DNA of 64,000 nt from Escherichia phage vB_EcoM_DE17. The notes beneath the pieces were generated by a model. That model had not been told where the DNA came from. It did no database searches and saw only the letters and a program-made list of their open reading frames with translations. The translations under genes were made by a program, and so were the position numbers. Below, one piece after another: positions 3,639 through 63,865 of the stretch (position 1 is the first letter of the stretch; each line of letters opens with the position of its first letter). The stretch lies in the sequence record OP595146.1, one strand, 5' to 3'.

Positions 3639-3967
3639 GACTCACCTCTCATATTTTTGTAAAGGATAAAGCTTCTGTCATGGACGACACTTGTAGACAC
3701 TGCAAAGTTACTTTCAAGCATCTGTTTGTTTGGATTGTAGAAGCTCTCTTTAAACTCGTCAAGTGCAAATTGGTGATTGTCTGGAAGACCTTTTACACAC
3801 ACCTTTATTGTGATTGCTGCTGCAATCTTCCCAGTCAGTTCTTCTTTAGCTGCTACTAAGATTTTGTTGAGGAACTTATGACCATTTTCAGGCTTCTTGA
3901 TGTTCTCCCAACGCTCTTCTAAGACAATATTGATGTTCATCTCTTTGATTTTCATAATTTTCACCAA
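3620..3967 (-). CDS. hypothetical protein
   Basis: 115-aa ORF in tight co-directional gene array; no recognisable motif. Confidence 0.4.
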   Translation of the reverse strand: MVKIMKIKEMNINIVLEERWENIKKPENGHKFLNKILVAAKEELTGKIAAAITIKVCVKGLPDNHQFALDEFKESFYNPNKQMLESNFAVSTSVVHDRSFILYKNMRGESCKHIG

Positions 3968-4305
3968 GTCCAGTTAACGAGTATGCCATCGAAACCTTTT
4001 ACTAAAGGTACACCCTCATGTTCATAAAATTCAGGATTAACTTCGAATCCACGATTTTCAATATACTCTATCATGTATTTCATTACAAAGCTAATCTCTT
4101 CGTAGTCATCTGGGTCTCTGCCAAAGAACTGTTCTATGACAAACATACCCTCTTTTGTAGCAAATTGGCAGTGGTGATTGTAGATACCTTCACAAAACTT
4201 TTCAAACTTTTCTTTACCGAGAACTTCAAGGATGTCTGTATAGGCAACTTGTAAGTATTTCGGTTGTACAGGTTTCTTATTAAACCATATGGAAAGGTTG
4301 TCCAT
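3961..4305 (-). CDS. hypothetical protein
   Basis: 114-aa ORF, 4-nt overlap with downstream gene; no motif recognised. Confidence 0.45.
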   Translation of the reverse strand: MDNLSIWFNKKPVQPKYLQVAYTDILEVLGKEKFEKFCEGIYNHHCQFATKEGMFVIEQFFGRDPDDYEEISFVMKYMIEYIENRGFEVNPEFYEHEGVPLVKGFDGILVNWTW

Positions 4306-4325
4306 AGCATTCTCCAGAAATTAAA

Positions 4326-4343
4326 AAGGCTCCCGTAGGAGCC
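4326..4343 (-). terminator. intrinsic terminator after NAMPT-like gene
   Basis: Minus strand hairpin GGCTCC-TACG-GGAGCC followed by TTTTTAATTT. Confidence 0.6.
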
Positions 4344-4358
4344 TCTTATCATATACTT

Positions 4359-6140
4359 TTAAAGCTGCTTGTCAATATTATTTCGAATATCACCAAGAGT
4401 TGTGTAGCCGAACTGCTCAGAGTCGCTAAAGACTAAACGTAAAGCACAAGCTGGATGTTCAAGTGCATCTGCAAAGCTCTGGAATCCATAGCCATCTACA
4501 GCTTTCAGATTCTCACCATCCCACATAGGGGCTACACCACCAAAAGCAGACTTCTTAACACCACTATCTGTTTTAGGGTCTTTTGCAAGCATAATCTCTT
4601 TACCACCAATTCTTGCAAGAGTTGCTTTGACAGCAAATGCAAAGGTGTCACGAGTCATGTACTGGTAAGTGTAAGAACCTACACCAAACACTACGTTAGA
4701 GCTTGCAAAACCCATTTCATACAAACGCTTAAGGATTTCGTTTGCGCGTTCCAACGTGATAGAGTCACCATAAATAAGTCCGATATGCTCATCCAGTACT
4801 TTAAAACCTTTAGAGTTGATAGTTCCTCCAAAGATGTTATACAGTGTCTTGATAGCTCCATCAATCTCCGCTACAGGACGTGTTACAACGTTTGCAGAAC
4901 CAACCATATAAGCATTTTTCAACAGCACTGTATCAGCAACTTCAAAGTCTTCTCTGTCAACAACCATTTCGTAACCTTCTGACAGTAGCCATCCAGCAAT
5001 ACCATAATTGATGTTTTCAAGCTTCATGTTCAGAACAGCATTCAGCATTGTGTCGCTGGCTTCCAGCTTACTTAGGTGTTCGTAATAAGCCTTTTTAGCA
5101 CACTCTAAATGGATTGCTTTGTATCCTGTGACAATATGTACAGGGTCTCCAGAATCAGGACGAATTACCAGTTTGCCATCACGTTCCATAATCTCTTTAC
5201 GGAGTTCTGGCAATATGACTGATACAGTTCTCCAGAAGTTATAAGTATCTGAAACAACACTTGCAATACCAGTTGGGTAAGTTTTTGTTAAGAAACGACG
5301 GAAGGTTTGTAACTCACCTTTAAAGCGTCTTTCTTCTTCAATCAACTCGTTACCACCTTCCCAAGCAATGTTTGCACACATTACAGAATGTTCAGTGGCT
5401 GGTACAGAGCTACCAATATCAGAGATTGGGTAGGACTGTCCATAGATGCGTTTAGCTGTATACACAGCAGGGAAGCTATCAGTCCCTTTAAAGCTGGTTA
5501 AGTGACCTACAGCGTTAAATGCGTCATCAGTAAAGCCAGACATACCACGCATAGCAAAGTCATGGCACTGGTAAGGTAAATGTAAGTCGTTGTCACAAGT
5601 AAGGTCAGCCCACTTCTTACAGATACGTTTGTAGTGCAATGCAATAGTTGCAATGGTACAAGCCTTCCAAATCTCAGCAGAGAAAGCATCTTCCAGATAC
5701 CCCGCTACCCAATGGAAACCTGAAACAGTGTTCTGGAAAACAATCATTGGTACACGCATAGGGACAACTGTACCTTCTTCTACAGCGTAGACTTCAACTG
5801 GTAAATAACCTAAGTCGTGGAGTGCTTCCCAATGTTCTCGACCAATAGCATCTTTACCCAGAACACCATTCATGACTTCTAAGATTTCGTCAATTGCTTC
5901 TTTTTTGTCACGTTCAAAGAACGTAGCATTCCAATGGTCTATCAGGTAATCTTTAACAAAACGTTGAATACCAAAAGCAACTACACCATCAATTGCTAAG
6001 GGGCTGTTAAACCATTTGTCACTACGTGGTGTCAGGTTGAACATCAAGTACTCTGTTGCGCTAGGATACTGGTAGATGTGACCAGATTTGTAAGCATCTG
6101 CGTTTAAACCTGCTGGTACTGCATAAAGTGATTTAGTCAT
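4359..6140 (-). CDS. nadV: nicotinamide phosphoribosyltransferase family protein (NAMPT/NadV-like; possibly Namat-type)
   Basis: 593 aa; sequence pattern typical of the NAMPT family throughout; adjacent to a Prs-like gene. Confidence 0.8.
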   Translation of the reverse strand: MTKSLYAVPAGLNADAYKSGHIYQYPSATEYLMFNLTPRSDKWFNSPLAIDGVVAFGIQRFVKDYLIDHWNATFFERDKKEAIDEILEVMNGVLGKDAIGREHWEALHDLGYLPVEVYAVEEGTVVPMRVPMIVFQNTVSGFHWVAGYLEDAFSAEIWKACTIATIALHYKRICKKWADLTCDNDLHLPYQCHDFAMRGMSGFTDDAFNAVGHLTSFKGTDSFPAVYTAKRIYGQSYPISDIGSSVPATEHSVMCANIAWEGGNELIEEERRFKGELQTFRRFLTKTYPTGIASVVSDTYNFWRTVSVILPELRKEIMERDGKLVIRPDSGDPVHIVTGYKAIHLECAKKAYYEHLSKLEASDTMLNAVLNMKLENINYGIAGWLLSEGYEMVVDREDFEVADTVLLKNAYMVGSANVVTRPVAEIDGAIKTLYNIFGGTINSKGFKVLDEHIGLIYGDSITLERANEILKRLYEMGFASSNVVFGVGSYTYQYMTRDTFAFAVKATLARIGGKEIMLAKDPKTDSGVKKSAFGGVAPMWDGENLKAVDGYGFQSFADALEHPACALRLVFSDSEQFGYTTLGDIRNNIDKQL

Positions 6141-6160
6141 CTTTTAATCTCTCTCAAAAT

Positions 6161-6176
6161 GGGGCTTTTAAGCCCC
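6161..6176 (-). terminator. hairpin after Prs-like gene
   Basis: GGGGCTTAAAAGCCCC then ATTTTGAG on minus strand. Confidence 0.45.
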
Positions 6177-6185
6177 TATAAACTT

Positions 6186-7067
6186 TCAATCAAGGTTTGC
6201 TACAGTAACTTGACTATAATGTGTTAAGCCACGGTCTTTAGCTTCGCCTAAAGAGTTTGTAGTGTAAATATGGTCGATACCATTGTCAAGAAGGTTTTCA
6301 ACATCTTTAGAGAAGATACCATGTGTTACATAAAGTTCCACACGTTTTGCACCTGCTTCACGAAGATGTTTCGCTGCTTCTATGAAGGTTCGACCACCAT
6401 CACAGATATCATCCAGAATCATAACGGTTTTATCTGTCAAATCAACATCATCAAGGATTCGCATACCAGTAATTTCACCAGTCTTAAGGTTACGCACTTT
6501 AGACATTGTGATGTATGGTTTATCCACCTCTTTAGCAGTCTCTGCAATCTTCTTAGCAGCACCTGCATCTGGGGCTACTAAGTAATCAATCAGTGGGTCA
6601 TTTGCATAGTGGACTGCAATTTCCTTTTGAGGAATACTCTGGAAGCAGTTAAACAGGTTATCTGGTACATAGCTGTGAGGGTCAACTGCACAGACTGCAC
6701 CAAATCCCATTGCATTTACCTGTTTAGCAAAAACCTTTAAAGCTGCTGCGTCACCTTTAAACATGTGACGGTCATAGCGTGCATTTGGTAAGTAGTAAAA
6801 GATGACAGTCTTTAAAGCATAATCATGAGGAATTAAATCATCAATTGCTTCTTTAGCAAGTGCCACAGCAAACAATGTATCCTTATCATAACCTTTTACA
6901 ATCATAATCACATTGTTGATGGATGATGCTGCATAAGCAGTGAAATCAACAAACTCTGGCGAAAAGTGTCCACCAATCTCACCAGAAGGAAATTGGATGA
7001 TGTTAAACTCTTCTTCATGAGTTCCTTTAGTTGGTGAATGAACTGTAACACGGATAGATGTTTTCAT
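6186..7067 (-). CDS. ribose-phosphate pyrophosphokinase family protein (Prs-like; possibly ADPR-PP synthetase type)
   Basis: PRPP-synthetase-like motifs VDPHS and MILDDICDGGRTF; start moved to the ATG at 7067 with upstream GAGAGAGA; track start at 7082 appears non-ATG. Confidence 0.75.
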   Translation of the reverse strand: MKTSIRVTVHSPTKGTHEEEFNIIQFPSGEIGGHFSPEFVDFTAYAASSINNVIMIVKGYDKDTLFAVALAKEAIDDLIPHDYALKTVIFYYLPNARYDRHMFKGDAAALKVFAKQVNAMGFGAVCAVDPHSYVPDNLFNCFQSIPQKEIAVHYANDPLIDYLVAPDAGAAKKIAETAKEVDKPYITMSKVRNLKTGEITGMRILDDVDLTDKTVMILDDICDGGRTFIEAAKHLREAGAKRVELYVTHGIFSKDVENLLDNGIDHIYTTNSLGEAKDRGLTHYSQVTVANLD

Positions 7068-7078
7068 AGTTTTCTCTC

Positions 7079-7357
7079 TCAATCAAAAGTTACGTTTGTT
7101 ACTGCCATTGCAGATTTGCATTTTGCAGGGTCTACAACGTGATAAAGTACACTACAGTTACCTGTGCTGTCTGGTACAGGTTTAACCCATTGTTGCTTGA
7201 CAGTTGGTTCGCCTAAGTCTTTGTAAGAACCATCTGTAAAGTTGTTTACCATCTCAAGTGCAATTGGCTCTGGAACATGACCACGTATCATGTACATTTC
7301 ACAGCCATTACCACCTTCACTGACTAATGGTAAAATCTCCCACTTTTCTTTAGCCAT
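7079..7357 (-). CDS. hypothetical protein
   Basis: 92-aa ORF in operon context. Confidence 0.45.
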   Translation of the reverse strand: MAKEKWEILPLVSEGGNGCEMYMIRGHVPEPIALEMVNNFTDGSYKDLGEPTVKQQWVKPVPDSTGNCSVLYHVVDPAKCKSAMAVTNVTFD

Positions 7358-7865
7358 TGTAAGTTGCCCTATAAACTATCTCGAACTTCAACAGGAGAGA
7401 TATTGCCAAATCTGTATAGTTGTTGTCAAGCACATCTGGCATATTATTTTTGATATATCTCTCTTGCTCTTCATAGGTCATCTTAGGGGTACTTAAAAGA
7501 CTATCTCCTTGCTTCTGGTTATCAGCTTTAGTCTGAATAAACCAGTTTGCACAGTGATGTTCGCCACCTTTTGTAACAGGTTTGTGGTGGCCTAATGTGA
7601 AGGATTGACTGCCTGTGTATCTGCAAAGTTTATTGAGTACTGTAATGGTGTTCTTCACAACAAAGCATTCATATAGGTTGTCTATGGTGTAGTGTGGGTA
7701 ATATCGAAATAATGCTCTTTCACGAGTACTCTCACGATTCCAGAGAATCATGTGGTTGGAGTTGGAAGGGTCGTATTGGTGGGAGTCAATGAACTCTTGA
7801 CGTTCCTCAAAACTGAGTCTTAACACTGACATTGCAGCAGAACGTTTCAGATTTGACAGATACAT
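7350..7865 (-). CDS. putative HNH-type nuclease
   Basis: 171 aa; GHHKPVTKGGEHHCANW resembles the HNH core (HH..P...GG.....N); second half of motif not clear. Confidence 0.4.
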   Translation of the reverse strand: MYLSNLKRSAAMSVLRLSFEERQEFIDSHQYDPSNSNHMILWNRESTRERALFRYYPHYTIDNLYECFVVKNTITVLNKLCRYTGSQSFTLGHHKPVTKGGEHHCANWFIQTKADNQKQGDSLLSTPKMTYEEQERYIKNNMPDVLDNNYTDLAISLLLKFEIVYRATYNG

Positions 7866-7916
7866 ATTATCTCCAAAATAAAAAGGGAACCTTTACAGTT
7901 CCCTTATAGTATCTGC

Positions 7917-8237
7917 TTACTGAGCTACTTTCAAGATTCTTGTGAATGGAATTTCACTTTCTTCCATTAACTCTTTAGTTTCTTTGGTAACTTTCACAAA
8001 GTTATCTAGGCAGATAATCTTCTTATCTTTCTTACTATAGGTTAATTTAACCTTTTCAATATCTTTCTCAGAGCTTTTCTCTTCATTGAAGAGTTTTACA
8101 GCCTCTTTGAATGGGAGATATGAGCCATCATTATCACTAATGAATCCTGTACCACAATAGTAGGAGTTATGTTCTCTAGCCATAAACTGGCACAGTAAGA
8201 AAATCTGTAATTTACGAGTGTTATAAACTTTGCTCAT
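7917..8237 (-). CDS. hypothetical protein
   Basis: 106-aa ORF. Confidence 0.45.
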   Translation of the reverse strand: MSKVYNTRKLQIFLLCQFMAREHNSYYCGTGFISDNDGSYLPFKEAVKLFNEEKSSEKDIEKVKLTYSKKDKKIICLDNFVKVTKETKELMEESEIPFTRILKVAQ

Positions 8238-59078: not shown

Positions 59079-59153
59079 TGGAGAATCCGAAGGGACTCGA
59101 ACCCTTATAAACCTGTTTTGCAGACAGGCACATATCCATTTCTGTCACGGATT
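59079..59153 (-). tRNA. tRNA-Cys (anticodon GCA)
   Basis: Hand-folded: acceptor gaatccg/cggattc, T-arm AAGGG-TTCGAGT-CCCTT, loop CTGCAAA, CCA encoded. Confidence 0.7.
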
Positions 59154-59157
59154 CAAA

Positions 59158-59250
59158 TTGGAGGAAGATACCAGACTTGAACTGGTACACCGATTTCTCA
59201 GCTACTGGCAGTTTAGCAAACTGCTCCCTTACCTTTTAGGGTTAATCTTC
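59158..59250 (-). tRNA. tRNA-Ser (anticodon GCT), class II
   Basis: 93 nt; anticodon stem GCAGT/ACTGC, loop TTGCTAA, long variable arm, T-arm ACCAG-TTCAAGT-CTGGT. Confidence 0.65.
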
Positions 59251-59252
59251 CA

Positions 59253-59987
59253 TTATTTCTGTAATGCGTTCTTCATTTCTGGTGTTGCAATAGTGTCAAT
59301 TACACCAGTTTTACAAGCATCATCAAACCAGTCTGGTAAGATACCTGCTAAGAACCCATTGATATTCGTTTTAAGGTACTCTGCAATAAGGGCAGCTTCT
59401 TCTTCAATCATCTGCACAACTTCATCTGCATAAGCTGTAATCTTTGAGATACCTTCATTAATCTTACTAACAGCTTGGTTAGCTAAATCAGAAATAGTAT
59501 CAAGACCTTTATCAATAGCATCCTGTAAGTCACTTAATACATCATTAACACCGTCTAGTGCACTGTTAATCGTATCCATAGCTTTTTGACCATACTCTGT
59601 AGCAACACCCATAATACCACTAAATGGTGTACAGCCAACTTGTTCACCTGCTGCACCCATAACATTAGAATAGCCTTTTGCTACCTGCATACGTGAGGAA
59701 AACTCATCAATGGACTTTTGACCATAATCTGTCAGTGTCTTAGTAGTTGATGTAGTGCTTGTCAGACTCGTTGTAAAGCTGTTAAGCAGAACTGTTGTAA
59801 GTCCAGCAGCAACAAGTTTATCTTTTATTGTAGGGTCTGTTACAGAGCTAATAGAGCTTACAAGTGATGTAGAGGCAGCTACGGTTCCACCGAGAACTGC
59901 TGCACCAGTAATAAGGGGATTAGAAAACCCTCTACCGGTTTTTAAGAGATTAAAAATCTCCTTACCTTGTTCTGTCATCTCTTTCAT
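59253..59987 (-). CDS. hypothetical Ser/Thr-rich protein embedded in tRNA cluster
   Basis: About 244 aa; start set to ATG at 59987 (MKEMTEQ) so it does not overlap the tRNA at 60004..60080; ends 3 nt before tRNA-Ser. Confidence 0.45.
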   Translation of the reverse strand: MKEMTEQGKEIFNLLKTGRGFSNPLITGAAVLGGTVAASTSLVSSISSVTDPTIKDKLVAAGLTTVLLNSFTTSLTSTTSTTKTLTDYGQKSIDEFSSRMQVAKGYSNVMGAAGEQVGCTPFSGIMGVATEYGQKAMDTINSALDGVNDVLSDLQDAIDKGLDTISDLANQAVSKINEGISKITAYADEVVQMIEEEAALIAEYLKTNINGFLAGILPDWFDDACKTGVIDTIATPEMKNALQK

Positions 59988-60003
59988 TAAGCACCTTTGG
60001 AAT

Positions 60004-60080
60004 TGGTAGTCCAGTGGGATTTGAACCCTCTTCTCATGTTTTTCAGACACGCGCTTTAACCATATAAGCTACTTGGACTA
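60004..60080 (-). tRNA. tRNA-Phe (anticodon GAA)
   Basis: T-loop TTCAAAT, anticodon loop CTGAAAA; one T-stem mismatch in hand fold. Confidence 0.6.
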
Positions 60081-60085
60081 TAAAT

Positions 60086-60161
60086 TGGGGTGACCTACGG
60101 GATTTGAACCCGTATAGACCATGTTCACAGCATGGGTCATTACCATTTATGATAAGGCCAC
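60086..60161 (-). tRNA. tRNA-His (anticodon GTG)
   Basis: Anticodon stem CCATG/CATGG, loop CTGTGAA; T-arm ACGGG-TTCAAAT-CCCGT. Confidence 0.65.
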
Positions 60162-60192
60162 ATTTAAGGACTCTCGTAAGAACCCTTAGAAG

Positions 60193-60268
60193 TGGCAGCG
60201 GCATAAGGATTTGAACCTTAATAAGACAGCTTCAGAGACTGCTGCATTGCCAGTTATGCTATACCGCT
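60193..60268 (-). tRNA. tRNA, probably Gln (anticodon CTG)
   Basis: T-arm TAAGG-TTCAAAT-CCTTA; anticodon loop CTCTGAA on a stem with two G-U pairs. Confidence 0.5.
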
Positions 60269-60273
60269 AAATT

Positions 60274-60352
60274 TGGTACTCCATATCGGATTCGAACCGA
60301 TACATAACACAGATTTTAAGTCTGGCCTCTCTGCCAATTGGAGTAATGGAGC
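60274..60352 (-). tRNA. tRNA, isotype uncertain (loop suggests anticodon TAA)
   Basis: T-arm ATCGG-TTCGAAT-CCGAT, CCA encoded; loop CTTAAAA; short variable arm is atypical for Leu. Confidence 0.5.
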
Positions 60353-60354
60353 AT

Positions 60355-60429
60355 TGGCGGGGGATGTTGGAATTGAACCAACTTCTTCGATTTCAAAGAC
60401 CGAGGTTTTAACCTTGTAAACTAATCCCC
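60355..60429 (-). tRNA. tRNA-Gln (anticodon TTG)
   Basis: T-arm GTTGG-TTCAATT-CCAAC, loop CTTTGAA; 1-72 mismatch in hand fold. Confidence 0.55.
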
Positions 60430-60438
60430 TTTAAATCT

Positions 60439-60996
60439 TTACTTTCTCAGTGGATGAATAAAGAATGCCAACATAACTCTTTCCCTTGAGAATGCTCTTT
60501 CTTCTGGGACAACACTTTTTAGCTTCCATCCAACATAAATTCTCCAGTAGAATTGTTTACCAAAGACTTTAATTGATGGGATAAAAGCGAATAATCCCCA
60601 AGCATTACTGTTCCACATTAGGAGATAACCTGTCTGATTATCTTCAGGGTTAGAACTTACGTTGATATTACCTTTCCACTTAGTAACATCTTTTACATCT
60701 CTTCCTAATACATGGTAAGAGAAGTTATAAGCTTTGTTTCTCCAGAGCCAACCAACTCTCTGCATATAGACACCAAGCTTGCCAATCTTTCTAATCTTAG
60801 CCCATCGTTCGACATGCCCTTTATCACCATCAATTGGGTTGTCATATGTCTCCATCCATCTGAAGCCGAAAGGTAAGTGTCCTTTCTTCTCACTGTAAAA
60901 TGGAACTACAAAAGGTGCTAAGATAACTGCTAAGATTGCTGCAAATGGTTCTAACAAAGCTAAGAAAATCCATGAAGCATACTTCAAATATCTCAT
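60439..60996 (-). CDS. membrane protein embedded in tRNA cluster
   Basis: 185 aa; N-terminal hydrophobic helix ASWIFLALLEPFAAILAVILAPFVV; flanked by tRNAs. Confidence 0.5.
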   Translation of the reverse strand: MRYLKYASWIFLALLEPFAAILAVILAPFVVPFYSEKKGHLPFGFRWMETYDNPIDGDKGHVERWAKIRKIGKLGVYMQRVGWLWRNKAYNFSYHVLGRDVKDVTKWKGNINVSSNPEDNQTGYLLMWNSNAWGLFAFIPSIKVFGKQFYWRIYVGWKLKSVVPEERAFSRERVMLAFFIHPLRK

Positions 60997-61015
60997 CTAA
61001 ATAGCCTCTTTAAAT

Positions 61016-61091
61016 TGGCGCAGGATAAGGGATTCGAACCCCTATTAACAGCTTCGTAGACTGTTGCTCTATCCATTTGAACTAATCCTGC
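61016..61091 (-). tRNA. tRNA-Arg (anticodon ACG)
   Basis: Acceptor gcaggat/atcctgc, T-arm GGGG-TTCGAAT-CCCTT, loop CTACGAA. Confidence 0.7.
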
Positions 61092-61204
61092 TTACCTACA
61101 AGAACACCATACAGTTTTTCACAAGAGTTGTTTTTACGCCTGTTTTTGAATGACGCTATAAACTTTTTTGCAATTGACTTATTACTCATAGTGTTCTCCT
61201 AAAA

Positions 61205-61283
61205 TTGGTGTTCCAAGACGGATTCGAACCGTCACTAGTACAAGGTTTGAGCTTGCATCCTCTGCCAATTGGGATACTGGAAC
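61205..61283 (-). tRNA. tRNA, isotype uncertain (loop suggests anticodon CAA)
   Basis: T-arm GACGG-TTCGAAT-CCGTC; D-stem ATCC/GGAT; loop CTCAAAC; short variable arm. Confidence 0.5.
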
Positions 61284-61284
61284 A

Positions 61285-61359
61285 TGGTACTCACTAAAGG
61301 ACTTGAACCTTTTTCTTCATCTTGTAAGGGTGATGTTTTACCATATAAACTAAGCGAGT
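61285..61359 (-). tRNA. tRNA, possibly Val (anticodon TAC)
   Basis: T-arm AAAGG-TTCAAGT-CCTTT; loop CTTACAA with one stem mismatch. Confidence 0.5.
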
Positions 61360-61455
61360 ATGAAAGAGGTCTGAAGTTGTGCCGCTAACTCAACTCCGTG
61401 GGATTTGTTACGGTCTTCAGTTGACTCAAAGCGGTCTTTCACTTGACCTCTAAAT

Positions 61456-61531
61456 TGGTGCTCCCACAAGGATTCGAACCCTGATAAGTTGCTTACAAGG
61501 CAACCGTAATAGCCAATTATACGATAGGAGC
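61456..61531 (-). tRNA. tRNA-Thr (anticodon TGT)
   Basis: Perfect anticodon stem GTTGC/GCAAC, loop CTTGTAA. Confidence 0.7.
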
Positions 61532-61538
61532 ATTAATT

Positions 61539-61613
61539 TGGAGCATCCAGAGGGAATCGAACCCTCAACATCAGTTTGGAAGACTGTAATTTTCCCGTTT
61601 AAACTATGGATGC
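61539..61613 (-). tRNA. tRNA-Gly (anticodon TCC)
   Basis: T-arm GAGGG-TTCGATT-CCCTC, loop CTTCCAA. Confidence 0.65.
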
Positions 61614-61619
61614 ACTAAT

Positions 61620-61695
61620 TGGTGGAGTCACTGAGAATTGAACTCAGTTCCCAAGTTTGCAAAACTCGAATTTTAACCATATAAACTATGACCCC
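61620..61695 (-). tRNA. tRNA-Ala (anticodon TGC)
   Basis: Acceptor GGGGTCA with G3-U70 pair typical of tRNA-Ala; loop TTTGCAA. Confidence 0.7.
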
Positions 61696-61701
61696 ATTGT
61701 T

Positions 61702-61777
61702 TGGTACAGGTGGAGGGAATTGAACCCATCGTCTTACTGATTAAGAGTCAGCCGCATAACCATTTTGCTACACCTGC
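61702..61777 (-). tRNA. tRNA-Lys (anticodon CTT)
   Basis: Loop CTCTTAA on stem GCTGA/TCAGT; T-loop TTCAATT. Confidence 0.6.
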
Positions 61778-61784
61778 ATTAATT

Positions 61785-61862
61785 TGGTAGGAGACAAGGG
61801 ATTCGAACCCTCAAACACCAACTTCTAAGGATGGTAGGTTTACCAATTACCGTCAATCTCCC
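61785..61862 (-). tRNA. tRNA, isotype uncertain (loop suggests anticodon TAG)
   Basis: T-arm GAGGG-TTCGAAT-CCCTT, CCA encoded; loop CTTAGAA; D-arm fold ambiguous. Confidence 0.5.
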
Positions 61863-62116
61863 ATTAAATCTTTTTAGAGAACTTCTAAGAACCTAAGCAA
61901 CAAGGTTCCACAACAAGCTGTAATAACCTTAGAAGCCCTCTAAAAAGACCTAAATTGGTCTTTGCATAGTCTTGTTTAATCCGGTGACTAGAACCTTTGG
62001 AGAGCTTGATATTATCTCTTCTCCGTGACACCTACTAGGTGCTTTATCAGTGTGTACGACAATACACGAGGGATACCAAAGCAACATCCGAATGAAGCTT
62101 GGCTTTAAATCTTATT

Positions 62117-62207
62117 AGGCGGTAAGTAAAGGAGTCGAACCCTCACCGTATCTCTACAGTGGCAACTGTTTTCAAGACAGTTTGGCTACCATTAGCCGCT
62201 ACCTACC
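62117..62207 (-). tRNA. tRNA-Ser (anticodon TGA), class II
   Basis: 91 nt; perfect anticodon stem ACTGT/ACAGT, loop CTTGAAA, long variable arm; 3' CCA not encoded. Confidence 0.7.
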
Positions 62208-62220
62208 CCTAATAAGACTT

Positions 62221-62303
62221 TGGCATGGGACGGAGGAGTTGAACCCCTTTGAAACGGTTTTGGAGGCCGTTGCTCATGCCTTAGAGTCTTAACATCGTCC
62301 CAC
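62221..62303 (-). tRNA. tRNA-like gene, isotype uncertain (possibly Trp, anticodon CCA)
   Basis: T-loop TTCAACT and paired acceptor ends; 83 nt; internal fold ambiguous; candidate loop CTCCAAA. Confidence 0.45.
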
Positions 62304-62445
62304 ACTATAATTCGAAGCTTACCGTATTTTCGCAACACTGTAAAGCCCCTTCTCAGATTATTTACATGTTCTGGAAAACATGAGATACAGACCACCTCCT
62401 TACACGGAGACCCGATAAGGTCGTCTAAGCAATCTGCTAACTATT

Positions 62446-62522
62446 TGGCACACCCTACAGGATTCGAACCTGTAACTAACGATTTAGAAGACCGTTGCTC
62501 TATCCAATTGAACTAAGGGTGC
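62446..62522 (-). tRNA. tRNA-Arg (anticodon TCT)
   Basis: T-arm ACAGG-TTCGAAT-CCTGT, loop CTTCTAA; D-arm near-identical to tRNA-Arg(ACG). Confidence 0.7.
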
Positions 62523-62814
62523 ATTAATCTTTAAAGACTCTCTTAGAAAGCCCTTAAAGATGCCCACCTTATTAATCATACCGTGGGCGAGTACGCCAAA
62601 TTCTTTGATGAGGGATTGGAAGACCTCACTGGTGTTTAGCCTATCAAGCTACTGCCAGAAAAACATTGTCGTTTGCATTTATTTTAAGTTTGCAAAATAG
62701 ACGCTACGCAACGAAAACTATTCAGAATATGTACAACAAATTTCCCCACATTGTGTTACGTCTAACACTCATGTATTGGTGTTTGAATTATACATATTAT
62801 GAAGTATTTTAGTT

Positions 62815-62843
62815 ACTATAAAGTGGTCACACCTCAATGTCAA
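62815..62843 (-). promoter_or_regulatory. sigma70-like promoter inside tRNA cluster
   Basis: Minus strand TTGACA-N17-TATAGT in an AT-rich spacer between tRNA-Ile and the tRNA-free region 62523..62810. Confidence 0.45.
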
Positions 62844-62858
62844 CAACTTTATTGAAAT

Positions 62859-62934
62859 TGGTACTGGTAGGTGGAATCGAACCACCGATGTTCCCTTATC
62901 AGGGGAGTGTTATAACCTTCTTAACTATACCAGC
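62859..62934 (-). tRNA. tRNA-Ile (anticodon GAT)
   Basis: T-arm GGTGG-TTCGATT-CCACC, loop CTGATAA. Confidence 0.65.
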
Positions 62935-62935
62935 T

Positions 62936-63012
62936 TGGAGGTTCAGATGGGAATCGAACCCACATTCATAGGGCTTATGAAACCCCTGCATTACCTTATC
63001 TGCGACTGAACC
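62936..63012 (-). tRNA. tRNA-Met (anticodon CAT)
   Basis: Loop TTCATAA on stem GGGGT/GCCCT; T-arm GTGGG-TTCGATT-CCCAT. Confidence 0.65.
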
Positions 63013-63016
63013 ATAT

Positions 63017-63092
63017 TGGTAGAAGTGGAGGGATTCGAACCCATCGCCTGTCAGATTAAAAGTCTGCCGCATCACCATTCTGCTACACTTCC
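63017..63092 (-). tRNA. tRNA-Lys (anticodon TTT)
   Basis: Loop CTTTTAA; acceptor and T-arm similar to the tRNA-Lys(CTT) copy. Confidence 0.65.
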
Positions 63093-63236
63093 ATTAAATC
63101 ATCTTTGTAGATAAGCTACCCAGACTTGCTTAAGGTCTGTAGCGATGTGCATTGTTGGGTTTAAATCTAGAATTTACCCTTTCACCCTTTGTGGTCGCAT
63201 ACTCACAGGTAAGCTTAATAGCTCACCTACAAAGAT

Positions 63237-63380
63237 AATTACCAGACCGTTGTTTATCATCTTAAGTGCTACCATTACACCAACTCGACATCTGCCGAGT
63301 GAAGGAATCGAACCTTCGCCTTTTCTTTACCGGAGAAATAGATTGTTTAAGTTTTGCTGTAAACGGTCTTCTGTAAATTT
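63237..63380. repeat. repeat copy 1 (attaccagaccgt ... ttttgctgtaaacggtcttctgtaaattt) carrying a tRNA-like T-arm insert
   Basis: Terminal motifs shared with copy 2; the two ends can pair (agaccgt / acggtct); about 95 nt between them includes gccgagt-GAAGG-aatcgaa-CCTTC with no matching 5' acceptor. Confidence 0.5.
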
Positions 63381-63546
63381 GTTGAGCCAGACCAAGTTTA
63401 AATTTTTCAAAATTAAATTGGCTTGAAATTTTAAGTAACTTGCTGAATTTGGTCTTCTGCTCCTTTAAAGAATACTCGTAAGAACTCTTTAAGGGAGGGG
63501 CTAAATAGCCCTCTCAAAACATCATCTTGAAATACTTATTATAATT

Positions 63547-63624
63547 TGGCGGTTACGAAGGGATTTGAACCCTCATCATCTCCCGTGACAGGGGAGTATT
63601 TTAACCAGATTAAACTACATAACC
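63547..63624 (-). tRNA. tRNA-Asp (anticodon GTC)
   Basis: Perfect anticodon stem CTCCC/GGGAG, loop CTGTCAC; T-arm GAGGG-TTCAAAT-CCCTT. Confidence 0.75.
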
Positions 63625-63630
63625 TTTATT

Positions 63631-63718
63631 TGGTGTGCCGTGTAGGAGTCGAACCTACCGAGTCTCAATGACAAGGGATTTACAGTCCCCACCGCTACCA
63701 TCTACGGGATAACGACAC
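63631..63718 (-). tRNA. tRNA-Tyr (anticodon GTA), class II
   Basis: 88 nt; loop CTGTAAA; long variable arm; T-arm GTAGG-TTCGACT-CCTAC. Confidence 0.7.
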
Positions 63719-63788
63719 ATTTATTATTCTATTCAGGCTAAGGACTTGCACCTTACAAATCGGTGAGCAATCGCTTCTCTCCTAAATT

Positions 63789-63865
63789 TGGCGGTTAGTC
63801 AGGGATTCGAACCCTGTGCCATTCGCTTAACAGGCGACCGCACATACCTTATGTGCTTCCTAACC
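63789..63865 (-). tRNA. tRNA-Asn (anticodon GTT)
   Basis: D-stem GCAC/GTGC, loop CTGTTAA, T-arm CAGGG-TTCGAAT-CCCTG. Confidence 0.65.

Follow-up and report, generated by a model that had tools for sequence, protein, structure and literature searches.

A Prs-like and a NAMPT-like gene lie side by side in phage vB_EcoM_DE17

We examined a stretch of 64,000 nucleotides from Escherichia phage vB_EcoM_DE17 (record OP595146.1), hereafter called the window, in which two neighbouring genes on the minus strand are candidates for the two-gene NAD+ reconstitution pathway 1 (NARP1). The first gene of the pair, adps (6186..7067, minus), encodes a protein of 293 aa that resembles ribose-phosphate pyrophosphokinase (Prs) and is the predicted ADP-ribose pyrophosphate (ADPR-PP) synthetase. 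The second, namat (4359..6140, minus), starts with ATG and encodes a protein of 593 aa that resembles nicotinamide phosphoribosyltransferase (NAMPT, or Nampt) and is the predicted nicotinamide ADP-ribose transferase. The two genes are adjacent, with adps upstream and 45 nt between them. In the list of open reading frames (ORFs), adps extends at its maximum over 6186..7082, giving 298 aa from a TTG codon. Its start is most likely the ATG at 7067, which gives 293 aa, because the annotated start and length of the corresponding gene in phage Bas63 agree with it; a purine run, GAGAGAGA, precedes this ATG. The pair is closed by an intrinsic-terminator-like hairpin (4324..4347, minus), whose 10-pair stem encloses a 4-nt loop and leads into a TTTTTAATTT tail. 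It folds with -16.6 kcal/mol (z = -3.4), which no shuffled sequence out of 200 equalled.

The original prediction for this DNA, made from the letters alone, had placed a NAMPT-like gene directly beside a Prs-like gene at 4359-7067 and had described the pair as closed by a clean terminator. These coordinates proved exact, since they run from the namat stop codon to the adps start codon, and the adjacency was confirmed by two neighbouring minus-strand ORFs with strong matches in PHROGs, Pfam and NCBIfam. The hairpin and T-run at 4347..4324 likewise bear out the terminator. In PHROGs, the namat product matched nicotinamide phosphoribosyl transferase (E = 1e-201) and the adps product ribose-phosphate pyrophosphokinase (E = 5e-97). 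Pfam found NAPRTase (3e-34) and NAMPT_N in the former, and Pribosyltran together with Pribosyl_synth in the latter. NCBIfam matched Namat to the PRK09198 'nicotinate phosphoribosyltransferase' equivalog at 468.7 bits against a cut-off of 405, and Adps to the broad TIGR01251 subfamily model at 123.6 bits against a cut-off of 113. GenBank records call the pair nadV/prs, and one record calls the prs-like gene nadR.

The locus is collinear with the operon from which NARP1 was defined

NARP1 was defined from the two-gene operon 79-80 of the BASEL phage Bas63, a Felixounavirus. Deletion of this operon made the phage sensitive to SIR2-HerA, whereas NAD+ was partly restored in cells infected by wild-type Bas63. 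Furthermore, ADPR-PP was detected in Bas63-infected cells, and the protection held in a host deleted for both pncC and nadR (bioRxiv 10.1101/2024.02.11.579819). We found the locus in the window to be collinear with Bas63 genes 79-80. The gene order nrdG-gp77-gp78-adps-namat-rIIA is the same as in Bas63 (JohannRWettstein, MZ501086.1) and is read in the opposite orientation. Namat and Bas63 gp80 are identical at 578 of 593 positions (97%), and Adps and Bas63 gp79 at 230 of 293 (78%), both without gaps. Judged by this identity and by full synteny, the locus is orthologous to an operon whose anti-defence phenotype has been demonstrated.

The 2.8-kb region matched 257 phage records, the best of them 98% identical, and the matching records were nearly all Felix-O1-type phages of Escherichia, Salmonella, Shigella or Citrobacter. 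Downstream of the locus lies rIIA and upstream nrdG, small conserved genes stand between them, and 23 tRNA genes (among them two each for Gln, Lys, Arg and Ser and three for Leu) are clustered at 59079-63865 (minus), at the far end of the window. Because the 257 matches, the rIIA and nrdG neighbours and the tRNA block all fit, the window is, by these sequence comparisons, a Felixounavirus genome.

The published operon criterion is that Adps and Namat homologues occur within 10 genes, and here an Adps-clade Prs homologue is encoded beside a Namat homologue. A tblastn search showed that the window Adps is 100% identical to the protein KT184314_00077 of phage KhF2; phages wV8 and HY02 have nearly the same protein. 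Osterman et al. list the KhF2 Adps sequence as Namat-associated in their Table S1, and their Table S2 labels Felixounavirus Namat proteins 'Adps-associated' (bioRxiv 10.1101/2024.02.11.579819). Since an identical Adps stands in Table S1, the locus is already in the published census. Separately, the database matches included Adps-like proteins of 284-286 aa and Namat-like proteins of 495-497 aa, encoded on contigs of megabase size from Cronobacter, Klebsiella, Kluyvera, Superficieibacter and Phytobacter; these bacterial matches agree with the published remark that some bacteria carry NARP1.

The presence and order of the genes, their orthology to the Bas63 operon and the conservation of published catalytic and specificity residues, described below, were seen directly. 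Taken together, they leave little doubt that the locus is the Felixounavirus two-gene NARP1. For the allele carried by this phage, the activities of the enzymes and the anti-defence phenotype are those that we infer by analogy with its homologues. The enzymology was worked out with SpbetaL1 proteins, of which Adps makes ADPR-PP from ATP and ADP-ribose, and Namat joins nicotinamide to ADPR-PP in preference to phosphoribosyl pyrophosphate (PRPP); when offered both donors, SpbetaL1 Namat made only NAD+ (bioRxiv 10.1101/2024.02.11.579819). In the proposed pathway, NAD+ would first be split into nicotinamide and ADP-ribose by a SIR2-, TIR- or SEFIR-type defence of the host. Adps would then move the beta,gamma-pyrophosphate of ATP to the distal ribose of ADP-ribose, giving ADPR-PP, and Namat would exchange the pyrophosphate of ADPR-PP for nicotinamide, giving NAD+ directly. 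Phage replication would thereby continue despite NAD+ depletion by SIR2-HerA, type I Thoeris, DSR1/DSR2 or SEFIR.

Namat carries both parts of the adenine selectivity clamp

Structures of SpbetaL1 Namat with bound nicotinamide (9W5X) and bound NAD+ (9W5W) were reported in 2026, and the selectivity of Namat for ADPR-PP was ascribed to a two-part adenine 'selectivity clamp'. The first part, the selectivity-clamp helix (SCH), has the motif GS-X-phi-X-phi-X-phi-TRD, whose aromatic residues 3 and 7 stack on the adenine. The second part, the selectivity-clamp loop (SCL), is the variable beta1-beta2 loop and supplies a further stacking residue; it has either Arg at the third position, or Lys or Tyr with the next residue stacking, Bas63 being an example with Lys (PMC12774641). 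In the window Namat, the segment GSYTYQYMTRD at aa 488-498 (4647..4679, minus) fits the SCH consensus, with Y490 and Y494 as the aromatic residues. The equivalent segments are GSFTYQYNTRD in SpbetaL1 Namat, GAQTYQRNTRD in HdNadV (which we take, from the title of its PDB entry, to be Haemophilus ducreyi NadV) and GGALLQKVDRD in Xcc Nampt. The motif is kept in all 36 aligned homologues; its third phi, usually Asn or Val, is Met in the window Namat and in Bas63. The SCL, RSDKWFNSPLAID, was located by alignment to SpbetaL1 at aa 39-51 (5988..6026, minus). Its K42-W43 aligns to R40-V41 of SpbetaL1, and the whole loop is identical to that of Bas63.

The core residues mapped from SpbetaL1 Namat are D15, Y17, F195, R198, D221, A248, H251, R327, D329, G458 and D459, and all of these other than A248 were checked and do not vary among the 36 homologues. 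Namat keeps the conserved Nampt-like core, with the catalytic His and an Arg that corresponds to R306 of SpbetaL1. Two substitutions relative to SpbetaL1 Namat place S190 opposite A196 and A362 opposite S460. In phmmer, Namat scored 429 bits against SpbetaL1 Namat (E = 2e-127), 353 against HdNadV, 179 against Xcc Nampt and ~144 against human NAMPT. An AlphaFold2 model was obtained with a predicted local distance difference test score (pLDDT) of 93.4 and a predicted template-modelling score (pTM) of 0.92. In a Foldseek search with this model, SpbetaL1 Namat ranked above HdNadV and HdNadV above human NAMPT, and Xcc Nampt was not among the fold matches listed; the predicted structure covers SpbetaL1 Namat with a TM-score of 0.95, normalised to the target. 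By sequence scores and by predicted fold, Namat is thus nearer to the characterised Namat than to the characterised Nampt enzymes.

Namat also contains an insertion of ~76 aa (aa ~346-426; 4863..5105, minus) that SpbetaL1 Namat, HdNadV and human NAMPT all lack. The insertion is folded in the model and has no known fold relative, and Bas63 has it too.

Adps shares catalytic and acceptor residues and the shortened C terminus of its family

ICP1 Adps has been solved in apo, substrate-bound and product-bound states (September 2026). Its catalytic Lys185 lies on a beta-hairpin (K162 in SpbetaL1), the acceptor residues are R87, H121, D161, D212, D213 and D216, and the adenine is contacted by F92 and by F18 from the neighbouring protomer. 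The diphosphate (PP) loop C215-S220 is remodelled and conserved among Adps proteins, and the N-terminal domains build the core of the hexamer. The alpha11-alpha12 tail of PRPS is lost in Adps, which the authors regard as a defining signature (PMC13586617). We retrieved 120 homologues and prepared a 24-sequence L-INS-i alignment that includes ICP1 Adps and E. coli Prs. In this alignment the catalytic Lys is K190 (ICP1 K185), the acceptor residues are R97, H131, D167, D219, D220 and D223, and all of these columns are invariant. F26, in QFPSGE, is invariant as well and aligns with ICP1 F18 and with F35 of E. coli Prs. A 4-sequence MAFFT alignment had set ICP1 F18 opposite T16; the loss of an adenine contact that this implied was rejected as an alignment artefact. 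The PP loop reads DDICDGGRTF. Its C222 is invariant in every Adps-like sequence aligned and is Ile in E. coli Prs, while at loop positions 225-226 the window protein has GR where ICP1 has AA.

At its C terminus, Adps stops ~20 residues short of the end of E. coli Prs and the alpha11-alpha12 module is absent. The alignment of human PRPS1 to Adps stops at residue 290 of 318, and the match to TIGR01251 ends at position 290 of 309. Adps also fell far short of all the NCBIfam Prs equivalog cut-offs (103.6 against 296 and 63.7 against 438, for instance), the broad TIGR01251 being the only model that it passed. By these equivalog scores and the absent C-terminal module, Adps is probably not a canonical class I Prs.

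Comparative evidence separates NARP1 from a salvage pair and from other NAD+ pathways

The original prediction had called the locus a candidate NAD+ reconstitution module of the Adps/Namat type, and had held that sequence alone cannot tell such a module from a plain salvage pair. In a salvage pair, PRPP would be made from ribose-5-phosphate and then converted to nicotinamide mononucleotide (NMN), and the NadR/PncC routes of the host would complete NAD+. We consider this very improbable here. Names and scores from Pfam, PHROGs and NCBIfam and the GenBank annotations of related phages do fit a salvage pair, and SpbetaL1 Namat keeps NMN formation from PRPP in vitro; however, Bas63, whose Namat is 97% identical, overcame SIR2-HerA in the pncC nadR double-deletion host and accumulated ADPR-PP, and SpbetaL1 Namat supplied with both donors made NAD+ only. 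The proteins of the window themselves also speak against plain salvage, as Namat has the clamp motif that distinguishes it from Nampt, and Adps is without the PRPS regulatory/filament module and scores far under the Prs equivalog cut-offs. The automated names of both genes (Prs; nicotinate/nicotinamide phosphoribosyltransferase) are misleading and out of date. The statement that sequence cannot tell was therefore too cautious, because comparative evidence separates NARP1 from a plain salvage pair. The candidate module itself is supported by the orthology and synteny with Bas63, the census listing, and the clamp and Adps signatures. The comparison of profiles and structures that had been proposed as a check found Namat and Adps signatures in the two proteins, with Namat closest to SpbetaL1 Namat and Adps below the Prs equivalog cut-offs.

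A different role, that of a general metabolic booster which raises NAD+ for phage enzymes in every infection whether or not a defence is present, would suit the position of the locus among the nucleotide-metabolism genes nrdG, nrdD, nrdAB, thymidylate synthase and dihydrofolate reductase (DHFR). We give it hardly any probability, since NARP1 phages produce no excess NAD+ in defence-free cells (Osterman et al.), where ADP-ribose is lacking because it arises only after NAD+ cleavage, and since the deletion phenotype described is on SIR2-HerA cells.

We also considered the other pathways of this kind. NARP2 consists of Nampt and Nmnat (Vibrio phage KVP40), and NARP3 of PnuC and NadR (PMC13464706). 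NARP1-AP is an extended operon with a Macro-domain phosphatase, Adpp, which counters aRES, and aRES yields ADPR-1''-phosphate (bioRxiv 10.64898/2026.01.28.702374). Another extended NARP1 carries the RyR-domain glycosidase RyDEP (PMC13232231). Pfam searches within the window found no Nmnat, NadR, PnuC, Macro or RyR domain among 46 small and medium ORFs outside the structural-gene block, nor any Nmnat, NadR/PnuC, Macro or RyR domain in six of the neighbouring genes. The four genes that flank the operon had no significant Pfam match, the sole one listed, DUF7167, being below the cut-off. NARP2 was rejected, as Adps is present and no cytidylyltransferase-like, Nmnat or NadR family occurs among the 46 window ORFs scanned. 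NARP1-AP and NARP1 with RyDEP were rejected as well, as neither the flanking genes nor the 46 ORFs showed a Macro or RyR family. Since the window yielded no Nmnat, PnuC/NadR, Macro or RyR partner, the locus is read as plain two-gene NARP1.

Several points weigh against this assignment. The biochemistry comes from the SpbetaL1 and ICP1 homologues, and the genetics from Bas63 and other phages. SpbetaL1 Namat makes NMN from PRPP in vitro when ADPR-PP is not supplied (bioRxiv 10.1101/2024.02.11.579819). General libraries still call the proteins Prs and nicotinate/nicotinamide phosphoribosyltransferase, and Namat scores above the PRK09198 cut-off. In the alignment, M102 of Adps stands opposite the ICP1 adenine contact F92 and has F103 next to it, likewise in Bas63; this column holds Met or Cys in most aligned homologues. 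Residues 1-160 of Adps are only 67% identical to the genetically tested Bas63 allele. Finally, the search for partner genes covered the window, and ~24 kb (about a quarter) of the genome lies outside it.

The N-terminal domain of Adps is a divergent allele

Compared with Bas63, Adps contains a sharply bounded block of divergence that corresponds to its N-terminal domain (aa 1-160; 6588..7067, minus). Nucleotide identity to Bas63 is 65-76% across about 7080-6600 and 87-98% on both sides, and protein identity is 67% for aa 1-160 and 92% for the C-terminal half. Within the block, the proportion of synonymous differences (pS) is 0.755, which is saturated, and the proportion of nonsynonymous differences (pN) is 0.206, so that no finite ratio of nonsynonymous to synonymous rates (dN/dS) can be computed. 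The corresponding values are pS 0.32 and pN 0.036 for the C-terminal half of Adps, and pS 0.23 and pN 0.011 for Namat. Across phage records, Adps identity is bimodal, with 154 records at 90% or above, 7 at 80-90% and 91 at 60-80%, and database protein clusters repeat the domain-wise split. The simplest reading is that the block may be an old allele, swapped by recombination and kept under purifying selection. Positive selection or recent adaptive change was rejected as its origin, the synonymous sites being saturated and the nonsynonymous divergence moderate. Because the mapped active-site residues are common to both alleles, the two would have the same function.

The sharp boundaries of the block, its coincidence with the N-terminal domain and the saturated pS between flanks that are 87-98% identical could also be read as signs of changed properties. 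The locus would then be NARP1 in kind, with a diverged Adps domain that alters its properties relative to the Bas63 allele and hence the range of defences countered; candidate properties are oligomerisation, regulation and sensitivity to a host factor that targets Adps. Such a change would be in line with the two allele classes among phage records, which the protein clusters repeat, and with the N-terminal domains forming the hexamer core of ICP1 Adps. We nevertheless regard it as unlikely, since the mapped substrate-contacting residues are all shared, the equivalent of the regulatory flexible loop differs at two positions only, and a pN of 0.206 with saturated pS fits an old recombined allele under purifying selection.

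The allele and the Namat insertion can be combined in a joint reading, which is quite unlikely. In it, the Adps dimorphism would be kept as a host factor recognises or inhibits the hexamer core, and the lineage-specific Namat insertion would add a non-catalytic function. If true, the dimorphism would add another layer to the NAD+ arms race.

Transcription signals and neighbouring genes

In the gap between adps and namat, a fold calculation placed a second, GC-rich hairpin, GGGGCU-UAAA-AGCCCC (6161..6176, minus), with AUUUUG after it. Its energy is -12.6 kcal/mol (z = -2.97), none of 200 shuffled sequences folded as well, and Bas63 has the same stem with a single loop change. This intercistronic hairpin might serve as a partial terminator or affect the stability of the mRNA. 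At the other end of namat, a sigma-70-like promoter match, TTGACA-16-TATGAT (11/12), was identified by consensus at 4348..4375 (minus), where it overlaps the last namat codons and abuts the terminator hairpin. The predicted promoter would serve the next gene, 4305..3961. Upstream of the locus, a promoter-like site, TTGAAA-17-TACTAT (9/12), is followed by a hairpin (-14.4 kcal/mol, z = -2.9) and a T-run (7883..7934, minus).

Apart from the sites at 7934..7883 and 4375..4324, no minus-strand combination of hairpin and T-run in the window directly adjoins a promoter match of 9/12 or better. Both sites are laid out in the order -35, -10, hairpin, T-run, GGAGA, ATG, and together they bracket a 171-aa gene, a 92-aa gene, adps and namat. 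This arrangement suggests a four-gene transcription unit with composite terminator/promoter boundaries, maybe a modular cassette, although with two instances it may be due to chance. The promoter and stem-loop cassettes of T4-type phages resemble these composite sites.

The two further genes of the putative unit are located immediately upstream of adps and overlap at their ends; neither has an assigned function. The 92-aa gene (7079..7357, minus; phrog_4726) is the orthologue of Bas63 gp78 and ends 11 nt before the adps start, and is possibly co-transcribed with adps. Its product has no Pfam match, and its homologues are confined to Felix-O1-like phages. We considered it as an accessory NARP1 component and dropped this candidate, as the homologues are found in Felix-O1-like phages only, the linkage carries no independent weight and the product has no Pfam domain. 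The 171-aa gene (7350..7865, minus; phrog_3500), the orthologue of Bas63 gp77, has a weak HNH-endonuclease-like match (phrog_2214, E = 1.3e-4) and is possibly the first gene of the transcription unit. Elsewhere in the window, among the 46 ORFs scanned (130-35100), Pfam identified thymidylate synthase, DHFR, a deoxynucleoside monophosphate kinase and glutaredoxin. The same scan found a SegE-type GIY-YIG endonuclease, a PRA-PH (MazG-like) domain and several helix-turn-helix proteins.

Comparison with known NARP systems

From the assignment to NARP1, the phage is predicted to plate on E. coli or Salmonella hosts that deplete NAD+ by SIR2-HerA, Thoeris I, DSR or SEFIR-type systems. By published results, plain NARP1 would fail against aRES, so that the phage should stay sensitive to aRES-type cleavage. 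Both predictions could be used in the choice or engineering of therapeutic Felix-O1-like phages. The Adps allele, the Namat insertion and the promoter/hairpin cassettes appear to be unpublished as far as limited checks went, and are modest leads.

Among the more distant systems, NARP3 shares with the window only the theme of counter-defence, while NARP1-AP and NARP1 with RyDEP have the Adps/Namat core in common with it. NARP2 of KVP40 and the canonical Nampt enzymes (HdNadV, Xanthomonas, human) share the NAMPT fold and the core residues for nicotinamide and ribose-phosphate. However, HdNadV and Xcc Nampt are without the aromatic clamp motif of the window Namat, and NARP2 pairs Nampt with Nmnat, whereas the partner here is Adps, with no Nmnat found in the window. 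ICP1 Adps is alike in the catalytic Lys, the acceptor Asp, His and Arg residues, the Phe from the neighbouring protomer, the DDICDG loop and the truncated C terminus. It differs in overall sequence (~32-37% identity), in the loop, which is CDGGRT here and CDGAAS in ICP1, and at two positions where F92 is replaced by M102 and F223 by E230. SpbetaL1 NARP1 shares the catalytic core and the SCH motif and provides the best match in both sequence and fold. In contrast to the window protein, SpbetaL1 Namat has 491 aa and lacks both the ~76-aa insertion and another of ~15 aa (window aa 258-272). R40 itself is used in its clamp loop; the window loop has K42 and then W43 and is 4 residues longer.

Bas63 NARP1 is the closest of these systems, with the same genus, gene order, neighbours, protein lengths (293 and 593 aa), clamp loop, ~76-aa insertion and intercistronic hairpin stem; it differs in aa 1-160 of Adps, which form a different allele. 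By these sequence comparisons, the locus is a known and already published system, an orthologue of its founding example.

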